Shown: in pieces, positions 53,645-62,977 of the stretch
Layout of the letters: each line of letters begins with the position of its first letter
Numbering within the stretch: the first letter of the stretch is position 1
Assembly: GCA_963827155.1 (NCBI GenBank)
Contig: CAWGZV010000003.1
Coordinates: 226,436 to 290,435 of the forward strand
DNA length: 64,000 nt
Reading direction: 5' to 3'
From: an uncultured Chloroflexia bacterium
Lineage (GTDB): Bacteria > Chloroflexota > Anaerolineae > Anaerolineales > UBA4823
The notes under the pieces: model-generated
Database searches by the model: none
What the model saw: only the letters and a program-made list of their open reading frames with translations
Told to the model about the DNA's origin: nothing
Translations under genes and position numbers: made by a program

Positions 53645-55215
53645 TGTATGTACTTTGGGATTTCATCAGATTTCAGAAGCTGGTCTTGATTTTGGCGGTG
53701 GTAATGGTGTCGTCGTGCAATTATCCGGGGTTCTCGATGACTTCCTCAAACCAGTCAGTTGATGAAATCCGGCAGACCTTAGACGCGATCTCGATATCGG
53801 ATGCTCCGACAGATTCCCCGCCCGAAAGTAATCCACTTGCGACAGTCCCACTGCAAGCAACCCCAAGTCATGCTGAGTATACTGCTCCCATGCCCGGAGG
53901 CGCGCCGCTTGCCGGTCTCGAGAGGATTCAATATATCTCTCAACCAGGGGATACGCTTCCAGCGCTGGCGCGGCGCTTCGATATACCGCCGAATGCGATT
54001 CAGTCTTCAACCGTCTTGCCTTCAGAAAGTCTCATCCCTCGAGATCTGGAGCTGTGGATCCCAAACCGGGTGGGAAGTCCCCCATTTCCTGAAGCCCTGA
54101 TACCTGACGTGGAGGTGATCAACTCAATTTCGGCTGAAAACTTTGATGTGACTGCAGAAATCAACAAACATGCAGGTCGTCTCAGTACTTTTGTGGATAT
54201 ATCGCAGCGCGAGAAGCTTCTGGCTGCACAGATCATCCAGCGGGTTGCGATCGAATCTTCAATCAACCCGAGGCTCTTACTGGCGTTGATCGAACAGCAG
54301 TCGGGGTGGGTGACGGGGAAGATCAACGAGCGCGGGGATGAAAAATATCCTCTGGGATTTCATGTCAGCGGCTCGGAAGGACTGTATCGAGAGCTTTTGA
54401 TCGCCGCGACGCATCTGAATGCCGGTTATTACGGCTGGCGCGATGGCTCGAAAGTCCAGATCCAGTTTCTGGATGGGACCACGGCGCGTCTGGATCCGCG
54501 CTTGAATGCTGGCACCGCCGCTCTACAGAATATGTATACCAAACTCTATCGGAAAGACCAATGGTATGCAGCGCTTTATGGTCCGGGAGGATTTCTGGAT
54601 GTCTACCACCAGCTATTTGGAGATCCGTGGAAATTGGCAGCCCAGGCTGGCGAGATATATCCAACGGATTCGTTTCAGCCTGCGCTCGAGCTTCCTTTTA
54701 CTCTAGGAGAGCGCTGGAGTCTGACCGGAGGTCCCCATCCATCCTGGAAGACTGGCAGCCCGCGCGGAGCGTTGGATTTTGCACCGGTCACCGGTGAGCC
54801 AAGCTGCTCAGTTTCGTATACATGGATTTTGGCGCCTGCTTCTGGTGTTGTGGCGCGCTCTGAAAGAAACGTGGTTGCCCTCGACCTCGACGGAGATGGG
54901 AAGGAGCAGACCGGCTGGGTGATCGTATTTATGCATGTGGCAGACCGCGATCGGGTTCCGGCAGGCATGCAGGTGAATCTTGACACAAAACTTGGGCATC
55001 CTTCCTGTGAAGGCGGAACGAGCACCGGATCGCATGTGCATGTTGCCCGAAAATTCAATGGAGAATGGATTGCGATTTAGGGACCGTTGCCATTTGATTT
55101 AAGCGGATGGCAGGCGTTCGCCAGTGAAAAGAATTATCAGGGGGGGATGGAGAAAGATGGTCAGCAAGTCGTCGCTAGCCCAGTTGGGCCTCGCACCTCG
55201 ATTGTTGTTCGTTGA
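53644..55215 (+). CDS. LysM + M23-like peptidase lipoprotein with in-frame TAG at 55078
   Basis: LysM QPGDTLPALARRF; M23-like H-x-ALD, FMH and GSHVH. The frame continues GPLPFDLSGW... to TGA 55215. Confidence 0.75.
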
Positions 55216-55234
55216 GCCAAAAAAAGATTTTTTA

Positions 55235-56452
55235 CTACGGAGAACTCGAGCTGAGCTCCTGCAAAATTGCCCAGGTGTAACGAGCTGCATTCTCGAGAGC
55301 TTCTGGGCTAATATGCTCGAGGGTATCTGACATCTGGTGCCAGTGGGCGCTTGGGGAGTTGGCGCCTGGAGTGGAAGCGCTATAAGACCCATTCGCGGGC
55401 ACGGCGCAGAGGGTCAGCGCTGCTAATCCGCGCTGGGTAGCGACGAGTGCATCGGTGTAAGCCAGACCGGCTCCTGAAAAGACTTCCAGCTCTGGGAGGC
55501 AACCGCGACCTGCCGGGCGATGTCCAAGGCGCGCATGTGGGTTTTGTGCTTGATCATCAGTCCATCTGAGGTCAGAAATTTCAGCCTGCCAGAGCCTACC
55601 TGGTCAAGGATAATATAAAATGTCTTGTCCCCCAAATCCGCTTCATGCGCATCCAGATATGCCCGCATCCCATAAGCCCACACTTCCTCACAGCCGGTAA
55701 AGGCAAAATGCACTTCGAGATTCGGCAATGGAGATTTATTCAGCATCCTCGCCACCGCCAGCAAGACCGCGGTCCCAGAAGCATTATCATTTGCGCCAGG
55801 CGAGTAAGGTGTGAAATCTGCGTGCAGGCACATTGCCAAAGCAAAAACCTGGATCGGAACCAAAAGGATACCAAGCCATCGGACCGTTCCCCAATTCAGC
55901 GCCAATCCCAAGGTATAGCCTAGCGCCCCTAGTCCCATGCTGAACAAAGTCAGTCCGATCAGCAGACTGAAGGCTTTCTGCCATTTATCTGAGGAATAAA
56001 AAATTGGGGTCCGGTGTGAATCGAGATGGGCACACAGCACTACCCGCCCTTGGGGCTCCCCTGAAGCTGGGATAAGTCCGCTGACGTTTTGACTTCCCGA
56101 TCGCGGCAGGAGGCGTTGCAGCCAGCTCGACTTAAGATTGGTTTCGACCAGCATGCCTCCAAATCCCAGCGCGTTAAAGCAGCGCGGCGAGAAAGGTTGC
56201 GCCTACCCCGGGGAATAACAGGCTGGATATGGAGCCGGTCAGCGCTAATCCGAAAGCCAATCCAAAAGGCCAGTAGGTCGAAGGGACTGCCAAGAACTTT
56301 TCCATTTGCACGTCGAGGACCCCCAACAACCGCATCCGTTCGGCAATCCACTCCCCAGCTTTGCGTTCTTCTTGCGTGCAGCTTCCTCTCCCCCCAATAT
56401 CCTGGGATAATCCCTGGATCGTATAGCGCATCATTTCGTCCAAGTCTTGCAT
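55235..56452 (-). CDS. M28-family aminopeptidase with TM inserts, frameshifts near 56170 and 55495
   Basis: CAHLDS, GANDNASG, GCEE. The alternative frame carries YTDA and HWHQMSDT and ends at TAG 55235. Confidence 0.8.
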
Positions 56453-56566
56453 GGTTATACATTACTACCGCATGCATGGAAAATCAAGGTTATTTGAGGC
56501 AGAATAATGTTTTTGTAAGGCGTAATCTGGTATAACTGGGCGAAATCGAAGAGTAGATGAGGCAAT

Positions 56567-57620
56567 ATGACCGATCGAGGCGTGCTTGACCATTATCGCA
56601 AACTATTAAAATATACCTGCCCACACCGGTAATGTAACCCTCTATGAAGGAAATACGCCGCTGATCCCGGCCCCAAAGCTGGTGGAAGAGCTTGGAGGAG
56701 GTTTTGAGCTCTGGATCAAGTTTGAAGGAGTAAACCCAACCGGCTCATTTAAGGACCGCGGCATGACAGTGGCGATCAGCGAGGCATCAGGACGAGGAGC
56801 GAGAACAGCAATTTGCGCTTCCACCGGGAATACAGCCGCCTCTGCCGCAGCATACGCGTCACGCGCCGGGATGGAGTGCATCGTCCTGATCCCTCAGGGT
56901 AAAGTGGCGGCAGGGAAGCTTGCCGGTGCAGCGGCATACGGCGCTCAAGTGATCCAGGTGGAGGGTTCATTCGATGACGCCCTGGGGATGGTTGTGGAGA
57001 TCACCGGGTCGCGGCCGATCGCGCTGGTCAATTCACTAAATCCTTATCGTCTGGAGGGGCAGAAGACTGCCGCCTTTGAGATTTGTGATCGGCTTGGGAG
57101 GGCGCCTGATTGGCTGTGCCTGCCCGTAGGCAATGCCGGAAACATCACTTCCTACTGGATGGGGTTTCAGCAATATCAGGCGCTGAAATCCACAGGAGTG
57201 CCGCATATTCTGGGAGTCCAGGCTGCAGGTTCGGCTCCGCTGGTATTAGGCCGCCCTGTCGAACATCCGGAAACGGTTGCGACTGCAATCCGAATTGGTC
57301 GACCTGCCCGCGGTGAGCAGGCGCTTCAGGCGGCGGAGGAATTAGGCGGAAGGATTATCGCTGTCGAAGATCGTGATATCCTGAAGATGCAGAAAATGCT
57401 GGCGTCAGAGGGAATCTGGGTCGAGCCGGCTTCTGCGGCTGGAATGGCAGGCCTTGCGGAACAAATCCAATCCCGGCAGGTTGAGCTTCAAGGCAAGCGA
57501 GTGGTGGCAGTTTGCACCGGGCATGGGCTGAAAGACCCGGATGCAATCACCAGGCAGATGAGCCCACCTAGAGTACTTCCGGCTGAAGTCAGAGCCTTGG
57601 AAGACCTTCTTTTTGGATAG
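56567..57620 (+). CDS. thrC: Threonine synthase, frameshift near 56610
   Basis: TLYEGNTPL, EGVNPTGSFKDRG, CASTGNTAAS, PVGNAGN, ETVATAIRIG, TGHGLKDP. Confidence 0.93.
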
Positions 57621-57633
57621 CGGAATCCCAACC

Positions 57634-57662
57634 TTGACGACTATCCATGAGGCTGATATAGT
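57634..57662 (+). promoter_or_regulatory. Sigma70-type promoter of the aspartokinase leader
   Basis: TTGACG, 17-nt spacer, TATAGT with an extended -10 TG; ends 7 nt before the leader ATG. Confidence 0.75.
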
Positions 57663-57669
57663 TTCGCCT

Positions 57670-57753
57670 ATGTTCCAGGAAAAGCTGATCCACACAATCG
57701 CATTCGCGTTGACTACCACTCCTATCAAACAGGTAGGGCGCTGCCGCGGCTGA
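57670..57753 (+). CDS. Thr/Ile-rich attenuator leader peptide MFQEKLIHTIAFALTTTPIKQVGRCRG
   Basis: 4 Thr (3 consecutive) and 3 Ile codons. Followed by an antiterminator/terminator pair and then aspartokinase. Confidence 0.8.
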   Translation: MFQEKLIHTIAFALTTTPIKQVGRCRG

Positions 57754-57782
57754 TCCAGGATCAGATCGAGAGATACATGCCA

Positions 57783-57809
57783 GCGCCCCGAAACTATCGG
57801 GGCGTTTTT
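57783..57809 (+). terminator. Attenuator terminator
   Basis: GCGCCCCGA-AACTA-TCGGGGCGT followed by TTTT. The 5' arm can alternatively pair with GGGCGCTG (57736-57743). Confidence 0.85.
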
Positions 57810-57845
57810 CTTGAAGGGAATTCAGGAAGAATCCGGGAGGTTTTT

Positions 57846-59300
57846 ATGGGAATAGATTCTGACCAGAATAACGAAAATGAAGCGGGCTCTCGCCGGACAC
57901 TGGTGATGAAATTTGGGGGAACCTCAGTGGGCAGCAGCGAGGCAGTGAAGCAGGTTGTGAAGATTGTGAGCGCAGCACAGCATGAGTGGCCGCGCCTGGT
58001 GGTAGTGATTTCGGCGCTCTCGGGTGTCACAAACCGGCTGCTCGAAAGCGCCGTGAAGGCAGAAGGGGGGGACATCTCGCCGGCTGATTCGGCGCTGACC
58101 TGGATGCGGGATGAGCACAAAACGATCCTGGAAAGTCTGGTAGGTGAACCTCTCGTTAGAAAGCAAGTGATGGATGAGGTGGAAATTCTGCTGGCAGAGT
58201 TCGCCAGCCTGTGCCGGGCGATTAGCGTACTGGGGGAGGCAACCCCACGCGCCCTCGATGCGGTTGCTTCGCTTGGGGAAAAGATGAGTGTACGCCTTTT
58301 AGCAGCCGTGCTTCAGAGCTCGGGTATACCCGCTGCGCCAGTCGAGGCTACTCAATTGATCTTGACGGATGATTGCTTTCAATACGCTCATCCTGATTTA
58401 CGAGCTACCCAAATTCAAACCCGGCTGGTGCTTGATCCCATCCTGGACGAAGAGATTATCCCGGTTGTGACTGGCTTTATCGCCTCTACCCCACAAGGAG
58501 CTACAACAACGCTTGGGCGAGGAGGAAGCGATTTTTCGGCAGGCGTGCTTGGAGCAGTGCTGCCCGCGGACGAGGTCTGGATCTGGACGGATGTCGATGG
58601 GGTAATGAGCGCTGATCCGCGGGCGGTGCCAAACGCGCGCACGATCCCTACGCTGACATACCGCGAGATTGCCGAGCTGGCGTATTATGGCGCCAAGGTG
58701 CTCCATCCCCGCACGATCCGCCCGGTGATTGAGGCTGGCATCGGTCTGCGGATCTGCAATACCTTCAACCCATCCAATCCGGGGACCTGGCTGGTGAGCG
58801 ATGGCCCGCGCGTTCGGAATGGCGACGTGAAGGCAGTGACCGCAATCCGAGACCAGCGTTTGATCACGATCGAAGGAAGAGGAATGCTAGGTGTGCCGGG
58901 TGTGGCAGCTCGTGCCTTCGCAGCGGTAGCATCGACCGGCACAAGCGTACCGCTGATCACCCAGGCTTCTTCGGAGCAGTCGATCTGCTTTGCGGTGCCC
59001 ATCAGCGCCGGGGACAAGGTGATCGATGCATTGAATGATGCTTTTTCTCTCGAGCTCGTCCGTAGAGATATTGATCGCATCTGGGCCTCCCAGGAAGTCG
59101 TGATTGTGACTGTCGTGGGTGTAGGGATGATCCACACGCCTGGGATTGCCGGGCGCGTTTTTAGTGCTCTTGGAAATGCCGGTCTGAATGTGATTGCGAT
59201 CGCCCAGGGCTCCTCAGAAGTATCGATCAGCCTGGTTGTCGACGCGCAGGATGCCGACGAGGCTATTCGAACCCTGCACAACCTGATAGTGCCTCAATAA
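57846..59300 (+). CDS. lysC: Aspartate kinase with two ACT domains
   Basis: VMKFGGTSVG, TTLGRGGSDFSA, WTDVDG, GAKVLHP, QASSEQSI, QGSSEVSIS. Confidence 0.93.
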   Translation: MGIDSDQNNENEAGSRRTLVMKFGGTSVGSSEAVKQVVKIVSAAQHEWPRLVVVISALSGVTNRLLESAVKAEGGDISPADSALTWMRDEHKTILESLVGEPLVRKQVMDEVEILLAEFASLCRAISVLGEATPRALDAVASLGEKMSVRLLAAVLQSSGIPAAPVEATQLILTDDCFQYAHPDLRATQIQTRLVLDPILDEEIIPVVTGFIASTPQGATTTLGRGGSDFSAGVLGAVLPADEVWIWTDVDGVMSADPRAVPNARTIPTLTYREIAELAYYGAKVLHPRTIRPVIEAGIGLRICNTFNPSNPGTWLVSDGPRVRNGDVKAVTAIRDQRLITIEGRGMLGVPGVAARAFAAVASTGTSVPLITQASSEQSICFAVPISAGDKVIDALNDAFSLELVRRDIDRIWASQEVVIVTVVGVGMIHTPGIAGRVFSALGNAGLNVIAIAQGSSEVSISLVVDAQDADEAIRTLHNLIVPQ

Positions 59301-59311
59301 GGTGAAGACAG

Positions 59312-60457
59312 ATGGGAAATCTTTTGAAATCTTATGGACGGGCAGCAGTCTCCGATTTTCTGGGAGACCGGATCGTCTATCGTAATTTACAGCCCTATGA
59401 TCGCAGCCTGCCGGGGTTCGACCAATTACGTCTGGAGCTGAATATGCCAGGCGAGAATCTCCCACGCAAGAATGAAGCGGGATATGCCCGGGTGATTGCT
59501 GAGCTGCTCAAAGAATGCCGCAAGCAGGATTCTCCTGGGGGGCAGCTCGAACGGCTCGTTTTCGTCGGAGATACGCGTTTGCTGGATGGGACTGCATACG
59601 CCAATCTTTGCCGGGTTAGCGGGTGGTCTGGGCAGGCATTCATCGGCGCTGAAGATGATCAGCCGGCTTCGCTCATTCAGGAACAGGGTGAAAAAGGTCT
59701 GGCTGTTTTGCTTTCAAACCGCTGGGCTGCGCTGGAAACCTTTGATGAGCACTGCCGCTTGCAAAGGATGCCAATTGAGGAAGGAACGGCGGTAGTGATC
59801 GACCTGGATAAAACTACAATCGGGGCACGCGGCCGCAACGGACAGGTGATCGATGAGGCGAGGATGCAGGCGGTGGAGGAGACCGTCTCGGGGTTGTTGG
59901 GATCCGGCTTCGATAAGCAAAGATTTACGGCTGTCTACCAGCCGCTGAACCAACCCGAATTTCATCCTTTCACTGCAGATAACCAGGATAACCTGGCTTA
60001 TGTTTGTCTGATCCTGGGTTGCGGATTGTTCGAGTTCGGTGAACTTGTAAGGCGAGTGCGTATGGGGGAAATGGAGTCCTTTGTGGAATTCATCGATGAG
60101 GTGGAAAATAGAAAAGGTGAGCTGAGCCTGGAGCTGCGGCAAATCCACCAAGAGATCATCGAGCGAGTTCGCAGCGGCGATCCAACACCGTTCAAAGCAT
60201 TCCGAAGGAATGAATATATTCTCACTGTGAAAAGGTTTGGCTGCCTAGATGATTCGGCGCCAGTGGCAGAGATGCTAAATCAGGAAATCGTGATCACCCA
60301 AGAGGTGAGACGGATGGCTGAAATTTGGCGCGAGCGCGGCGCGCTGCTCTTTGGGCTTTCGGATAAGCCAGATGAAGCTTCACTTCCAACAGCAACATTA
60401 GCGGAAGGCGGTTCACAACCGCTCCATCGAGCCGTCACCCATGCTGTCGGCGAATAG
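59312..60457 (+). CDS. Hypothetical protein with HAD-like motifs in permuted order
   Basis: PRK, FVGDTRLLD, VIDLDKT, FGLSDKP. Starts 11 nt after aspartokinase. Confidence 0.7.
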   Translation: MGNLLKSYGRAAVSDFLGDRIVYRNLQPYDRSLPGFDQLRLELNMPGENLPRKNEAGYARVIAELLKECRKQDSPGGQLERLVFVGDTRLLDGTAYANLCRVSGWSGQAFIGAEDDQPASLIQEQGEKGLAVLLSNRWAALETFDEHCRLQRMPIEEGTAVVIDLDKTTIGARGRNGQVIDEARMQAVEETVSGLLGSGFDKQRFTAVYQPLNQPEFHPFTADNQDNLAYVCLILGCGLFEFGELVRRVRMGEMESFVEFIDEVENRKGELSLELRQIHQEIIERVRSGDPTPFKAFRRNEYILTVKRFGCLDDSAPVAEMLNQEIVITQEVRRMAEIWRERGALLFGLSDKPDEASLPTATLAEGGSQPLHRAVTHAVGE

Positions 60458-60560
60458 CCGTCATGAACCCGGGTGATATAATTCGCCTGTTTGACCTCAG
60501 ATTTTCACAAATAAGCTTATTTTAATTAAATTCGACCTGCATTGCGAAAGGAAGGATGAT

Positions 60561-60935
60561 ATGGATCCCGAAAGAAAACCTTCCGACAATAAAGATGAAG
60601 AGGAACTGCCGGTACAATGGAAGCAGATCCAGGGCGCAGTGTGGCTGCTTGGATTGGCGCTGATCGCCTGGCAAGATTGGTGGTGGCCGGGAATCCTGGT
60701 TTTGGCCGCAATCAGCGGTCTGACCCAGGCCGGAATCCAAATGTATATATCGAGGCAGGCTGAAGCCGGCAAGCACGAAATCCAGGATCAGGAGCTTGCC
60801 CGGGAGCGCGGCGAATGGCTTCCGGATGTCTGTCCGAACTGTGGCGGTCCGCTGAGTGTAGCCTCCGTTCATTGGAGCAGCCCGAATACTGCTGACTGCC
60901 CATACTGCAAGGCTAACCTGAAGAAGCGAAATTAA
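60561..60935 (+). CDS. Small membrane protein with C-terminal zinc ribbon
   Basis: AVWLLGLALIAWQDWWWPGILVL hairpin; CPNCGG...CPYC. Confidence 0.75.
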   Translation: MDPERKPSDNKDEEELPVQWKQIQGAVWLLGLALIAWQDWWWPGILVLAAISGLTQAGIQMYISRQAEAGKHEIQDQELARERGEWLPDVCPNCGGPLSVASVHWSSPNTADCPYCKANLKKRN

Positions 60936-60958
60936 TAATCACAAAAAATGAAGAGGGT

Positions 60959-62215
60959 ATGATGTCATCAATCAATGTTTCTCCGGTTTGGAGCCGAACT
61001 TTTCCCCTGACCATCGCTTACGGCGAGGGTTGCTACATCTACGATACCGATGGAAAGAAGTACCTGGATTTCACATCTGGGATTGGTGTGACCAACACCG
61101 GGCATTGCCACCCAACGGTGGTCGCCGCGGCGAGAGAGCAGATCGGTAAAGTGATCCATGCCCAGGTCAATAATTATTACCATCTCCCTCTTCTTTCTCT
61201 CACCGACGCAATGCTGACGATCGTCCCTGATCCTTCCTTTGACTGCTTCTTTTTCACTAATTCTGGCGCAGAAGCGATCGAGAGCGCGATGAAGCTGGCT
61301 CGCCATGCGACTAAAAAACCCAACTTGATCACCTTCCAGGGGGCATTCCATGGACGAACAAACCAAACCATGGCGGCTGATACCGGCAGCACGATCTACC
61401 GGGCAGGGTATGCCCCGCTCGCTTCAGGGATTTTCGTCGCGCCATATCCTTATTCCTACCGTTATGGCTGGGATTCGGAAACGACCAGCCAATTTTGTTT
61501 GAACGAGCTGAGACATATGCTCTACAGCCAGACCGCGCCGTCTGAAACGGCTGGGATCTTAATTGAGCCGGTGCTGGGGGAGGGCGGCTACGTTGTCCCA
61601 CCGGTCTCGTTTATGCAAGGGCTGCGGGCGATTTGCGATGAATTTGGACTGCTCCTGATCCTGGATGAAGTCCAATCTGGATTTGGCAGGACAGGAAAAT
61701 TCTTTGCGGTTGAGCATTTTGAGATCGTGCCGGATATTATTACGGTCGCCAAAGGGATCGCCTCGGGTTTCCCGCTCTCGGGAGTCATGGCACGGCGAGA
61801 ATTGATGGAGAAATGGGTTCCTGGCAGCCATGGGGGCACTTTTGGCGGGAATGCAGTCTCGTGCGCAGCCGCGGTTGCCACAATCGAGGTCCTGAAGGAT
61901 GGTTTGGTCGAGAATTCGGCTCGGATGGGGGCAATTTTGATGGCAGGATTGAAGAAAATTCAGCAGAAATATCCGATCATTGGCGATGTGCGCGGATTGG
62001 GATTGATGATTGGGGTCGAATTTACCAATCCCGATGGGTCTCCAGGCTCTCAGATGAGCGACGCGGTGAAGATGCGCTGCATGGAAGATGGATTGCTCTT
62101 ACTGCAGTGCGGGACATACCACCAGGTCATCCGCTGGATCCCCCCGCTGATTGTCAATGAAGGACAGATCGCAACCGCTCTGGAAACTTTCGAAAAGGCG
62201 GTTGGGCTTGGCTAA
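60959..62215 (+). CDS. Class III PLP aminotransferase (4-aminobutyrate aminotransferase-like)
   Basis: YLDFTSGIG, NSGAEAIE, FHGRT, EPVLGEGG, DEVQSGFGRTG, AKGIASG, HGGTFGGN. Confidence 0.92.
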   Translation: MMSSINVSPVWSRTFPLTIAYGEGCYIYDTDGKKYLDFTSGIGVTNTGHCHPTVVAAAREQIGKVIHAQVNNYYHLPLLSLTDAMLTIVPDPSFDCFFFTNSGAEAIESAMKLARHATKKPNLITFQGAFHGRTNQTMAADTGSTIYRAGYAPLASGIFVAPYPYSYRYGWDSETTSQFCLNELRHMLYSQTAPSETAGILIEPVLGEGGYVVPPVSFMQGLRAICDEFGLLLILDEVQSGFGRTGKFFAVEHFEIVPDIITVAKGIASGFPLSGVMARRELMEKWVPGSHGGTFGGNAVSCAAAVATIEVLKDGLVENSARMGAILMAGLKKIQQKYPIIGDVRGLGLMIGVEFTNPDGSPGSQMSDAVKMRCMEDGLLLLQCGTYHQVIRWIPPLIVNEGQIATALETFEKAVGLG

Positions 62216-62332
62216 TCCCAGGCGCTCGCGATTTCCCGGTTGAGCAAATTTGAGGACTCCATTTATTGATGTCTGAGACGGATTTGCAGATGATTTCCTC
62301 GTAAGCGCAACCTTTATTGATGGGATTATTAG

Positions 62333-62977
62333 ATGGTTGAGATTTTTCAAAATGTTCTGCTAGGGATCATGCTTGCCGCGCCAATTGGTCCGGCTGGAGT
62401 GGCAGTAATCCAGAGCGGGCTGCGTTGGGGATTCCGGGTGGCGTTTCTCACTGGTCTTGGGATCACGAGCGCCGATCTGACTTACATGCTCATCGTCTAT
62501 TTTGGGCTGGCGAGTTTTATCGGCATCCCTTTGGTCAAGATCATGATCTGGTTCATGGGTGCGCTCGTGCTTTTCTACCTGGGTTACAAGAGCGTGCAAT
62601 TAGGCGGAAAAAACCTCGATTTCAATGGGGGGATGGCTCAAGACCAGCGAAAACCTTTCCTGGTGGGCTACCTTGTGAATATCTCTAACCCGATTGCAGT
62701 CGTTTTTTGGCTGGGGATTTTCGGCTCGCTGATCACCGCTCCATCGGTATCTCCTGGACAGGAACCGGCGTCCGGCATACCGGACCTTTTGCGGGGTCTG
62801 AGCATCCTTGCGGGCATCCTGGCGTGGCACACAAGCATGTCCATCCTTACAAATTGGGGGAAACGATATGTGAATGAAAAAAGCGCCAGGATCATATCGA
62901 TTGTTGCAGGATTGGTACTTTTTGGTTTTGGGATTCGCTTTGCTTATCTGGCGATCCGCGCCCTTTTAGTGTTGTGA
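62333..62977 (+). CDS. LysE-family amino acid exporter
   Basis: AAPIGP...G.RWG, LFYLG, NISNPIAVVFW. Confidence 0.9.
   Translation: MVEIFQNVLLGIMLAAPIGPAGVAVIQSGLRWGFRVAFLTGLGITSADLTYMLIVYFGLASFIGIPLVKIMIWFMGALVLFYLGYKSVQLGGKNLDFNGGMAQDQRKPFLVGYLVNISNPIAVVFWLGIFGSLITAPSVSPGQEPASGIPDLLRGLSILAGILAWHTSMSILTNWGKRYVNEKSARIISIVAGLVLFGFGIRFAYLAIRALLVL

Follow-up and report, generated by a model that had tools for sequence, protein, structure and literature searches.

ThrB, the GHMP-type homoserine kinase (TIGR00191), is an ATP-dependent direct kinase that works without a phospho-enzyme intermediate. Described alternatives are ThrH (NCBIfam TIGR02137), a phosphoserine:homoserine phosphotransferase and phosphoserine phosphatase of the HAD family, and HomK, also called ThrB2 (BT2402, TIGR02535). 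Portions of the GapMind 2026 preprint cite the function of Pseudomonas aeruginosa ThrH to Singh et al. 2004, place homoserine kinase among the four steps behind most of the remaining amino-acid-biosynthesis gaps in prototrophic prokaryotes, and count thrB as missing in 16 of 208 prototrophs; these portions make no mention of Chloroflexota (bioRxiv 10.1101/2024.10.14.618325). As given in the same portions and in PMC9026213, HomK was confirmed by thrB::kan rescue and its donor is thought to be other than ATP. Here we describe ORF X (hereafter X), which encodes a 381-residue protein in a 64,000-nucleotide stretch of Chloroflexota DNA, referred to throughout as the window. Comparative genomics makes it likely that X is a non-orthologous homoserine phosphotransferase or kinase that replaces ThrB. 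Its HAD ancestry, catalysis, substrate and product are all things that we infer from sequence, genomic context and a predicted structure. Full-text literature searches found no description of the X family.

The X Family and Its Gene Neighborhood

X starts 11 nt after the aspartokinase (AK) ORF, which ends at 59300, and the gene order on the window is thrC, AK, X. The initial annotation had reported the same ORF, the same spacing and thrC close by. X has no match to any Pfam or NCBIfam model at E ≤ 1, and so none to TIGR00191, TIGR02137, TIGR00338, TIGR02535 or TIGR00938, and a phmmer search of the whole protein against PDB sequences gave none at E ≤ 10. Of 7,999 candidates that were scored for membership of its family, more than 3,263 match at E ≤ 0.001, and the family falls into 335 clusters at the 50%-identity level. 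The best 120 relatives are all 376-399 aa long, and those that bear a name are called 'hypothetical protein'. Among contigs drawn from one genome per species, 583 of 598 candidate stretches encode an X relative.

To describe the neighborhood of X, we took the best 80 related loci from a search with a 14-row X alignment and compared their flanks, up to 6 kb in length, with the proteins of the window. The titles of these loci are mostly Anaerolineae, Anaerolineales, Thermoflexales, Ardenticatenales or simply 'Chloroflexota'. An AK, asd or thrC gene lies within 6 kb of X in 68 of them (thrC in 56, AK in 48 and asd in 42), confirming the linkage to threonine-pathway genes that had been proposed from the window alone. 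The gene directly upstream of X is asd in 34 loci and AK in 12, while thrC follows X on the same strand in 33 loci and is convergent with it in 15. The usual layout is AK-asd-X-thrC, and most relatives have asd interposed between AK and X. Those downstream genes that were checked are true thrC genes, scoring 227 and 214 bits against the TIGR00260 cut-off of 167. The same association is seen further afield: in three other families of the phylum, each of the 6 loci checked has asd directly upstream of X, and the coordinates of one complete genome indicate an apparent AK-hom-asd-X order. An unrelated dCTP deaminase gene is found upstream of X in a minority of loci. Some of the AK-asd-X-thrC operons also contain small ORFs of 119-160 aa between X and thrC, for which no NCBIfam match was found (L097:7137-7619 and L111:7148-7981).

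In some genomes AK and X are fused. Seven 90%-identity clusters with 25 member sequences of 841-896 aa (P0271-P0276 and P0123) have this architecture, and six of the seven carry the JGI name 'bifunctional aspartokinase / homoserine dehydrogenase 1'. The C-terminal half of P0123, the one fusion that was scanned, has no Pfam match; it is therefore X rather than a homoserine dehydrogenase, and the JGI name is wrong. The annotation of AK-X fusions as aspartokinase/homoserine dehydrogenase would thus be corrected. Both the fusions and the 11-nt adjacency in the window are compatible with X being a non-catalytic regulatory partner of AK. We consider this explanation barely credible: the catalytic-type residues of X are invariant, X mostly follows asd and not AK (34 loci vs 12), and a regulatory role does not account for the exclusion between X and thrB described below.

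The initial annotation had described the AK of the window as attenuated by threonine (Thr). A promoter-like site, a leader ORF with a Thr run and a terminator were all located upstream of AK (table 1), which agrees with an attenuator-like element. The start of the AK ORF as listed overlaps the terminator, so AK translation probably begins at the ATG at 57846 or 57906 instead. Among 43 related loci, 10 feature Thr-run leader ORFs upstream of AK; the same feature occurred in 46-78 of 2,000 random 510-nt windows (2.3-3.9%). An Rfam search over positions 55000-62500 returned no family at E ≤ 1.

A Missing Homoserine Kinase and the Distribution of X

The window (C3:226436-290435) belongs to a genome of 4.94 Mb in 3 contigs that is 94.9% complete and includes hom and thrC. 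No thrB had been seen in the window by the initial annotation, and none was found over cut-off in the genome as a whole, where the best match to TIGR00191 reaches 30.8 bits against 168. Neither thrB_alt (TIGR00938) nor ThrH (TIGR02137) was found in this genome, and its sole HomK/ThrB2-like match scores 166 bits against a cut-off of 446 (TIGR02535).

Two proteins of this genome were considered for the ThrB step and rejected. The first, the HomK/ThrB2-like match itself (C3:46165-47373), is a true iPGM (NF003160, 562 bits against 468), and its orthologs are also present in 7 of 10 genomes of that order that carry thrB. Its identity matters because the HomK of Dehalococcoides was once typed as an iPGM, as recounted in portions of bioRxiv 10.1101/2024.10.14.618325. 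The second is a SCO1664-family protein (TIGR03843) encoded 22 nt upstream of hom on the same strand (G000 C2:532147-533893). This family is over cut-off in 111 of the 201 phylum genomes introduced below, thrB-positive ones included, and was found in neither of the X-bearing genomes of family f8.

The distribution of X was then compared with that of known homoserine kinases in a sample of 201 genomes from the phylum and another of 251 genomes from the class. Within the phylum sample, X is present in 17 genomes, whether searched with the single protein or with a profile, and thrB is over cut-off in 137, a tally that includes the unpublished genomes G038, G145 and G173 (thrB-positive, without X, and not the sole basis of any claim made here). 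No genome has both. ThrB2 is over cut-off in 19 genomes of this sample, none of which has X, and thrB_alt in 0. Within the class sample, 121 genomes carry X, 75 carry thrB, 1 carries both and 56 carry neither (Fisher P 2e-26 for X vs thrB, which is descriptive only). Thus X-bearing genomes that also encode thrB number 0 of 17 in one sample and 1 of 121 in the other.

The two genes also appear to replace one another inside families. In f65, seven of eight genomes have thrB and the eighth has X; thrB is found in 4 of 8 genomes of f60 and 2 of 8 of f62, each with X in 1, and f70 and f100 have one thrB genome and one X genome each. None of the 19 genomes of the window's own family has thrB, which is present in 10 of 12 genomes of sister families. 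Five genomes of this family other than that of the window were tested for X, and it was found in three. Both hom and thrC were present in all five of the other X-bearing genomes tested.

Weighing a Possible ThrB Replacement

The initial annotation had offered two roles for X: filling the ThrB step, or dephosphorylating an intermediate of the pathway. The linkage to threonine genes in 68 of 80 loci and the near-exclusion with thrB favor the former, so far as genomic context can indicate function, and the latter is less well supported. The AK-X fusions, the Thr-run leaders, the want of any known homoserine kinase type in a genome with hom and thrC, and the conservation of catalytic-type residues likewise speak for the ThrB step. 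In its fuller form, the second explanation makes X a phosphatase of HAD type that acts within the aspartate pathway or alongside it, employed in control or repair, and holds that some other protein performs the ThrB step; its substrate might be O-phosphohomoserine, beta-aspartyl phosphate or a damaged phosphoester. The DxDxT motif of X (see below) keeps its second Asp, which is the usual form in phosphatases, and many thrB-less genomes are also devoid of X (56 of 251 in the class sample, and 2 of the 5 tested in the window's family), such that another ThrB analog may exist. A phosphatase would, however, leave three observations unexplained: the near-perfect exclusion with thrB (both in 1 of 121), the occurrence of X at the thrB position of AK-asd-X-thrC operons, and the replacements of X and thrB inside families. 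We therefore judge it improbable that X is such a phosphatase.

A more specific proposal is that X is a phosphoserine phosphatase, analogous to SerB. Canonical SerB was missing from 4 of 5 X-bearing genomes tested, and the HAD enzyme ThrH has phosphoserine phosphatase activity, as cited in portions of bioRxiv 10.1101/2024.10.14.618325. Against this, SerB (TIGR00338) is over cut-off in only 2 of the 201 phylum genomes, both of which have X. SerB is thus absent phylum-wide, so that the serine gap is not tracked by X, and phosphoserine phosphatase there must come from another family. Moreover, X is linked to AK, asd, thrC and the Thr leader, not to serA or serC. The rarity of SerB across the phylum led us to reject this proposal, which we consider very improbable.

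Several observations weigh against X being a ThrB replacement. With regard to its distribution, the class-sample Fisher P overstates the case because related genomes are not independent, and one genome (G396) carries both X and thrB, the sole such case in the class sample. X was not found in 2 of 5 tested genomes of the thrB-less family to which the window belongs, X and thrB are both missing from 56 of the 251 class genomes, and about 25 of the 201 phylum genomes are without X, thrB and ThrB2 (a count made from tables). An unseen analog that serves these thrB-less genomes could serve X-bearing genomes too. With regard to the neighborhood, 12 of the 80 loci have no pathway neighbor, 7 of which have short flanks; the Thr leader is absent from 33 of the 43 related loci, and a looser start-codon rule brought up none in the 10 loci examined from families f5, f8 and f16. 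In addition, neither asd nor argC was found in the window's genome with TIGR00978, PF02774 or tblastn searches using the Asd of three relatives, which means that either its pathway or its assembly is incomplete; the genes may fall in the 5% that the assembly lacks, or may truly be absent. Finally, most HAD enzymes are phosphatases.

The genomes in which neither thrB nor X was found include near-complete ones. They may be auxotrophs, or may carry another homoserine kinase analog.

Motifs and Predicted Fold of X

The initial annotation had read HAD-like motifs in X in the order III-IV-I-cap-II. The corresponding strings are PRK (residues 51-53), VFVGDTRLLD (83-92), VIDLDKT (162-168) and FGLSDKP (347-353). 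In an alignment of 72 sequences with 27-66% identity to X, 38 columns are conserved at ≥90%, among them P51, R52 and K53; G86, D87 and D92; D164, D166, K167 and T168; and S350, D351, K352 and P353. The motif residues being among these columns, the motifs are conserved and are not chance strings. D164 and D166 are the presumed phospho-aspartate nucleophile and general acid/base, respectively. Conservation at ≥90% extends to the helical insert between motifs I and II, where it comprises R184, T221, D223-N-Q-D226, T292, F297-R298, E301, T305 and E331.

An AlphaFold model built from the alignment has a predicted local distance difference test score (pLDDT) of 97.3 and a predicted template modeling score (pTM) of 0.93; prediction from the single sequence of X was uninformative (pLDDT 36). 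The secondary structure of the model places each motif where a HAD enzyme would be expected to have it. A hydrophobic strand ends in DxDxT (VVIDLDKT, 161-168), as expected of motif I, and two bridge residues that follow D164xD166 may be the flap hairpin. Helix 56-73, with K53 just before it, leads into strand 81-86, so that both conservation and model placement agree with a motif III lysine and a motif IV GD...D pair. The final strand (376-380) is close to the C-terminus. S350, the candidate motif II serine, ends strand 345-349. Overall, the motif residues are predicted to fall at strand ends, as they would if they formed a single active site of HAD type. The order of the motifs along the chain is III-IV-I-cap-II and not the canonical I-II-III-IV, as the initial annotation had it; the strings, their conservation and their places in the model all agree with that description.

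Sequence variation was seen at two levels. X in contigs from public sequencing runs differs from the window at four places: two are synonymous, and the others are D116N (window 59657), found in three runs, and L273Q (window 60129), found in one; neither is a conserved motif residue. A divergent subfamily (P0226, P0247, P0248, P0251 and P0264) has 30-33% identity to X and is extended at the N-terminus by 230-430 residues that match nothing in Pfam. In three of its sequences that were viewed, motif I reads DMDRT, DLDHT or DLDQT.

Is X a Circularly Permuted HAD Enzyme?

These features make it likely that X descends from a permuted HAD enzyme, its HAD core being read from a different starting point to give the order III-IV-I-cap-II. 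The best PDB profile match of X is the HAD hydrolase 2hcf_A (E 0.17), which aligns in three pieces over motifs I, II and IV, in permuted order. With VIA-align, the HAD phosphatase 6iah_A was aligned to residues 159-379 of the model (Z 6.6, root-mean-square deviation 4.0, 151 residues aligned). The named neighbors of X in a language-model search are all HAD families, with scores of 0.76-0.77 that serve as a lead only. Comparison by hhalign with the genome's own HAD_2 paralogs (7, then 6) gave short pieces only (P 0.009-0.19); three pieces became collinear once the profile columns were permuted, and global alignment gave nothing.

Other results count against HAD ancestry. Membership of the HAD superfamily is not statistically established, as the hhalign pieces reach only P of about 0.01, Foldseek found no match of the X model in the PDB at E ≤ 0.001, and the Pfam and NCBIfam searches that returned 0 matches at E ≤ 1 included the HAD models. 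In VIA-align, the best Z of 7.7 belongs to generic Rossmann-like proteins and is above that of 6iah_A. The top rows are Rossmann-like, periplasmic-binding-protein-like or methyltransferase-like, and span model residues 49-356. VIA-align of Foldseek's top 999 chains listed generic Rossmann-like proteins only (Z up to 7.3) and no HAD, and an ESM Atlas search with residues 153-381 alone gave no usable match. The permutation proposed by the initial annotation is therefore backed by the motifs, by their secondary-structure placement and by weak profile and structure matches, and falls short of statistical significance.

The generic matches also bear on an alternative ancestry, in which X is a flavodoxin-like or CheY-like phospho-aspartate enzyme with a 2-1-3-4-5 sheet that has converged upon HAD-like motifs. 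This would suit the sequential structure aligners, which return only generic matches (residues 49-356, Z up to 7.7), as well as the lack of any Pfam or NCBIfam HAD match. Yet generic Rossmann-like matches are what sequential aligners should return for a permuted core. By simple reasoning, a 3-2-1-4-5 sheet whose last two strands are brought to the front acquires the order 2-1-3-4-5, which is CheY-like. Convergence must moreover contend with the retention of every detailed HAD signature, namely the strand ending in DxDxT, the possible flap, the cap located there, the hhhGDxxxxD motif and the strand-end Ser. It must also contend with the HAD identity of the best PDB profile match and of all named language-model neighbors, and with the alignment of a HAD phosphatase over the S1-cap-S2 region. 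X does not resemble a CheY-like receiver, having no Pfam match and a DxDxT motif plus a helical insert of ~165 residues after the nucleophile strand. We hence regard convergence as unlikely. No account of a circularly permuted HAD turned up in full-text literature searches, and X may be the first case to be described in which the HAD catalytic core is rearranged in this way.

Proposed Mechanism

Were X to replace ThrB, it would make O-phospho-L-homoserine for threonine synthase, both in the organism of the window and across about half of the class genomes sampled. We envisage a HAD-type ping-pong reaction, in which a donor would first phosphorylate Asp164, giving an aspartyl-phosphate intermediate, with D87 and D92 holding Mg2+ and S350 and K53 holding the phosphate. 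The cap would then shut over the site, keeping water out and positioning homoserine, such that the phosphoryl group could pass to the gamma-hydroxyl of homoserine with D166 serving as the acid/base. The cap is rich in conserved Arg, Asp, Asn and Glu residues and may bind both homoserine and the donor.

Candidate donors include ATP, an acyl phosphate and, by analogy with ThrH, phosphoserine. The use of ATP as phosphoryl donor has a precedent in the P-type ATPases. The AK-X fusions make beta-aspartyl phosphate an attractive donor, and X may conceivably be an acyl-phosphate:homoserine phosphotransferase supplied by the adjoining or fused AK, though this is speculative and we would not expect it to be so. 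If true, a single kinase would charge the carbon skeleton and also drive the later phosphorylation, with a net ATP cost equal to that of the ThrB route, and this would constitute a new reaction in a core pathway.

The consequences of a ThrB replacement extend beyond the mechanism. X would fill the ThrB gap in about half of the sampled genomes (121 of 251) of a widespread, mostly uncultured class, and false calls of threonine auxotrophy in metabolic models of Anaerolineae would stop. Relatives of X are present in at least 583 species genomes.

Other Features of the Window

The positions of X, its motifs and its neighbors are collected in table 1. In the window, the reading frame of thrC is broken by an extra base at 56608, within an A-rich run (56600-56612). 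This base is missing from the contigs of two runs from two studies, and without it thrC is a single 350-aa ORF from 56567 to 57620; the break is therefore an assembly indel and thrC is not a pseudogene. Downstream of X, the gene for the zinc-ribbon-like protein is kept in 5 of the 80 related loci, all of them close relatives.

Table 1. Coordinates of X, its motifs and neighboring features, in window positions
Feature	Coordinates	Strand	Remarks
Threonine synthase, thrC	56567..57620	+	TIGR00260, 268-284 bits
Thr-attenuator-like leader	57634..57814	+	Between thrC and AK
Promoter-like site	57634-57662	+	10/12 matches
Leader ORF	57670-57753	+	27 codons, T-T-T run
Terminator	57782-57806	+	10-bp hairpin and T tail
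Aspartate kinase (AK)	57777..59300	+	AA_kinase and two ACT domains
ORF X	59312..60457	+	381 aa, no named family, candidate homoserine phosphotransferase/kinase
P51-R52-K53	59462..59470	+	HAD motif III-like lysine, just before helix 56-73
G86-D87...D92	59567..59587	+	HAD motif IV-like (GDxxxxD), end of strand 81-86, presumed Mg2+ ligands
D164-L-D166-K167-T168	59801..59815	+	HAD motif I-like (DxDxT), end of strand 159-164
All-helical insert, residues 177-341	59840..60334	+	Between motifs I and II, HAD C1 cap position
Strand 345-349, then S350-D351-K352-P353	60344..60370	+	HAD motif II-like serine
124-aa protein	60561-60935		C-terminal zinc-ribbon-like CxxC pair, 3' of X
Class-III aminotransferase	60959-62215		3' of X

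Comparison with Known Systems

ThrH resembles X in its proposed chemistry: in each, a HAD-type reaction would yield O-phosphohomoserine without a GHMP kinase, as an alternative to ThrB. The two proteins differ in that X has the order III-IV-I-cap-II and not I-II-III-IV, is ~380 aa long with a helical insert of ~165 residues, and has no TIGR02137 match at E ≤ 1. X is also the apparent main enzyme of its pathway, located in threonine operons and excluding thrB, and was not found as a multicopy suppressor. HomK/ThrB2 provides a parallel in evolutionary terms: it is a non-orthologous replacement of ThrB, as X is proposed to be, and each has a phyletic profile complementary to that of ThrB and is linked to threonine operons; HomK is found in 19 genomes of the phylum sample and X in 17, with no overlap. 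Its fold is unrelated, however, HomK being an alkaline-phosphatase-like metalloenzyme that resembles iPGM. ThrB itself shares with X the same proposed step and the same operon position before thrC, without any relation in sequence or fold.

Among HAD enzymes, the C1-capped, HAD_2-type phosphatases (2hcf, 6iah) have a helical cap after the nucleophile strand and DxDxT, S/T, K and GDxxxD motifs like those read in X. In X, the order of the chain appears circularly permuted and the cap is much larger, and HAD models miss it. The AK-X fusions recall ThrA and MetL, in which an aspartokinase is joined to an enzyme acting further along the same branch, except that the C-terminal half of P0123 is X and not homoserine dehydrogenase. 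Overall, what is new here is the family, its topology and its wide distribution, with precedents in kind in ThrH as a HAD enzyme and in HomK as a non-orthologous replacement.

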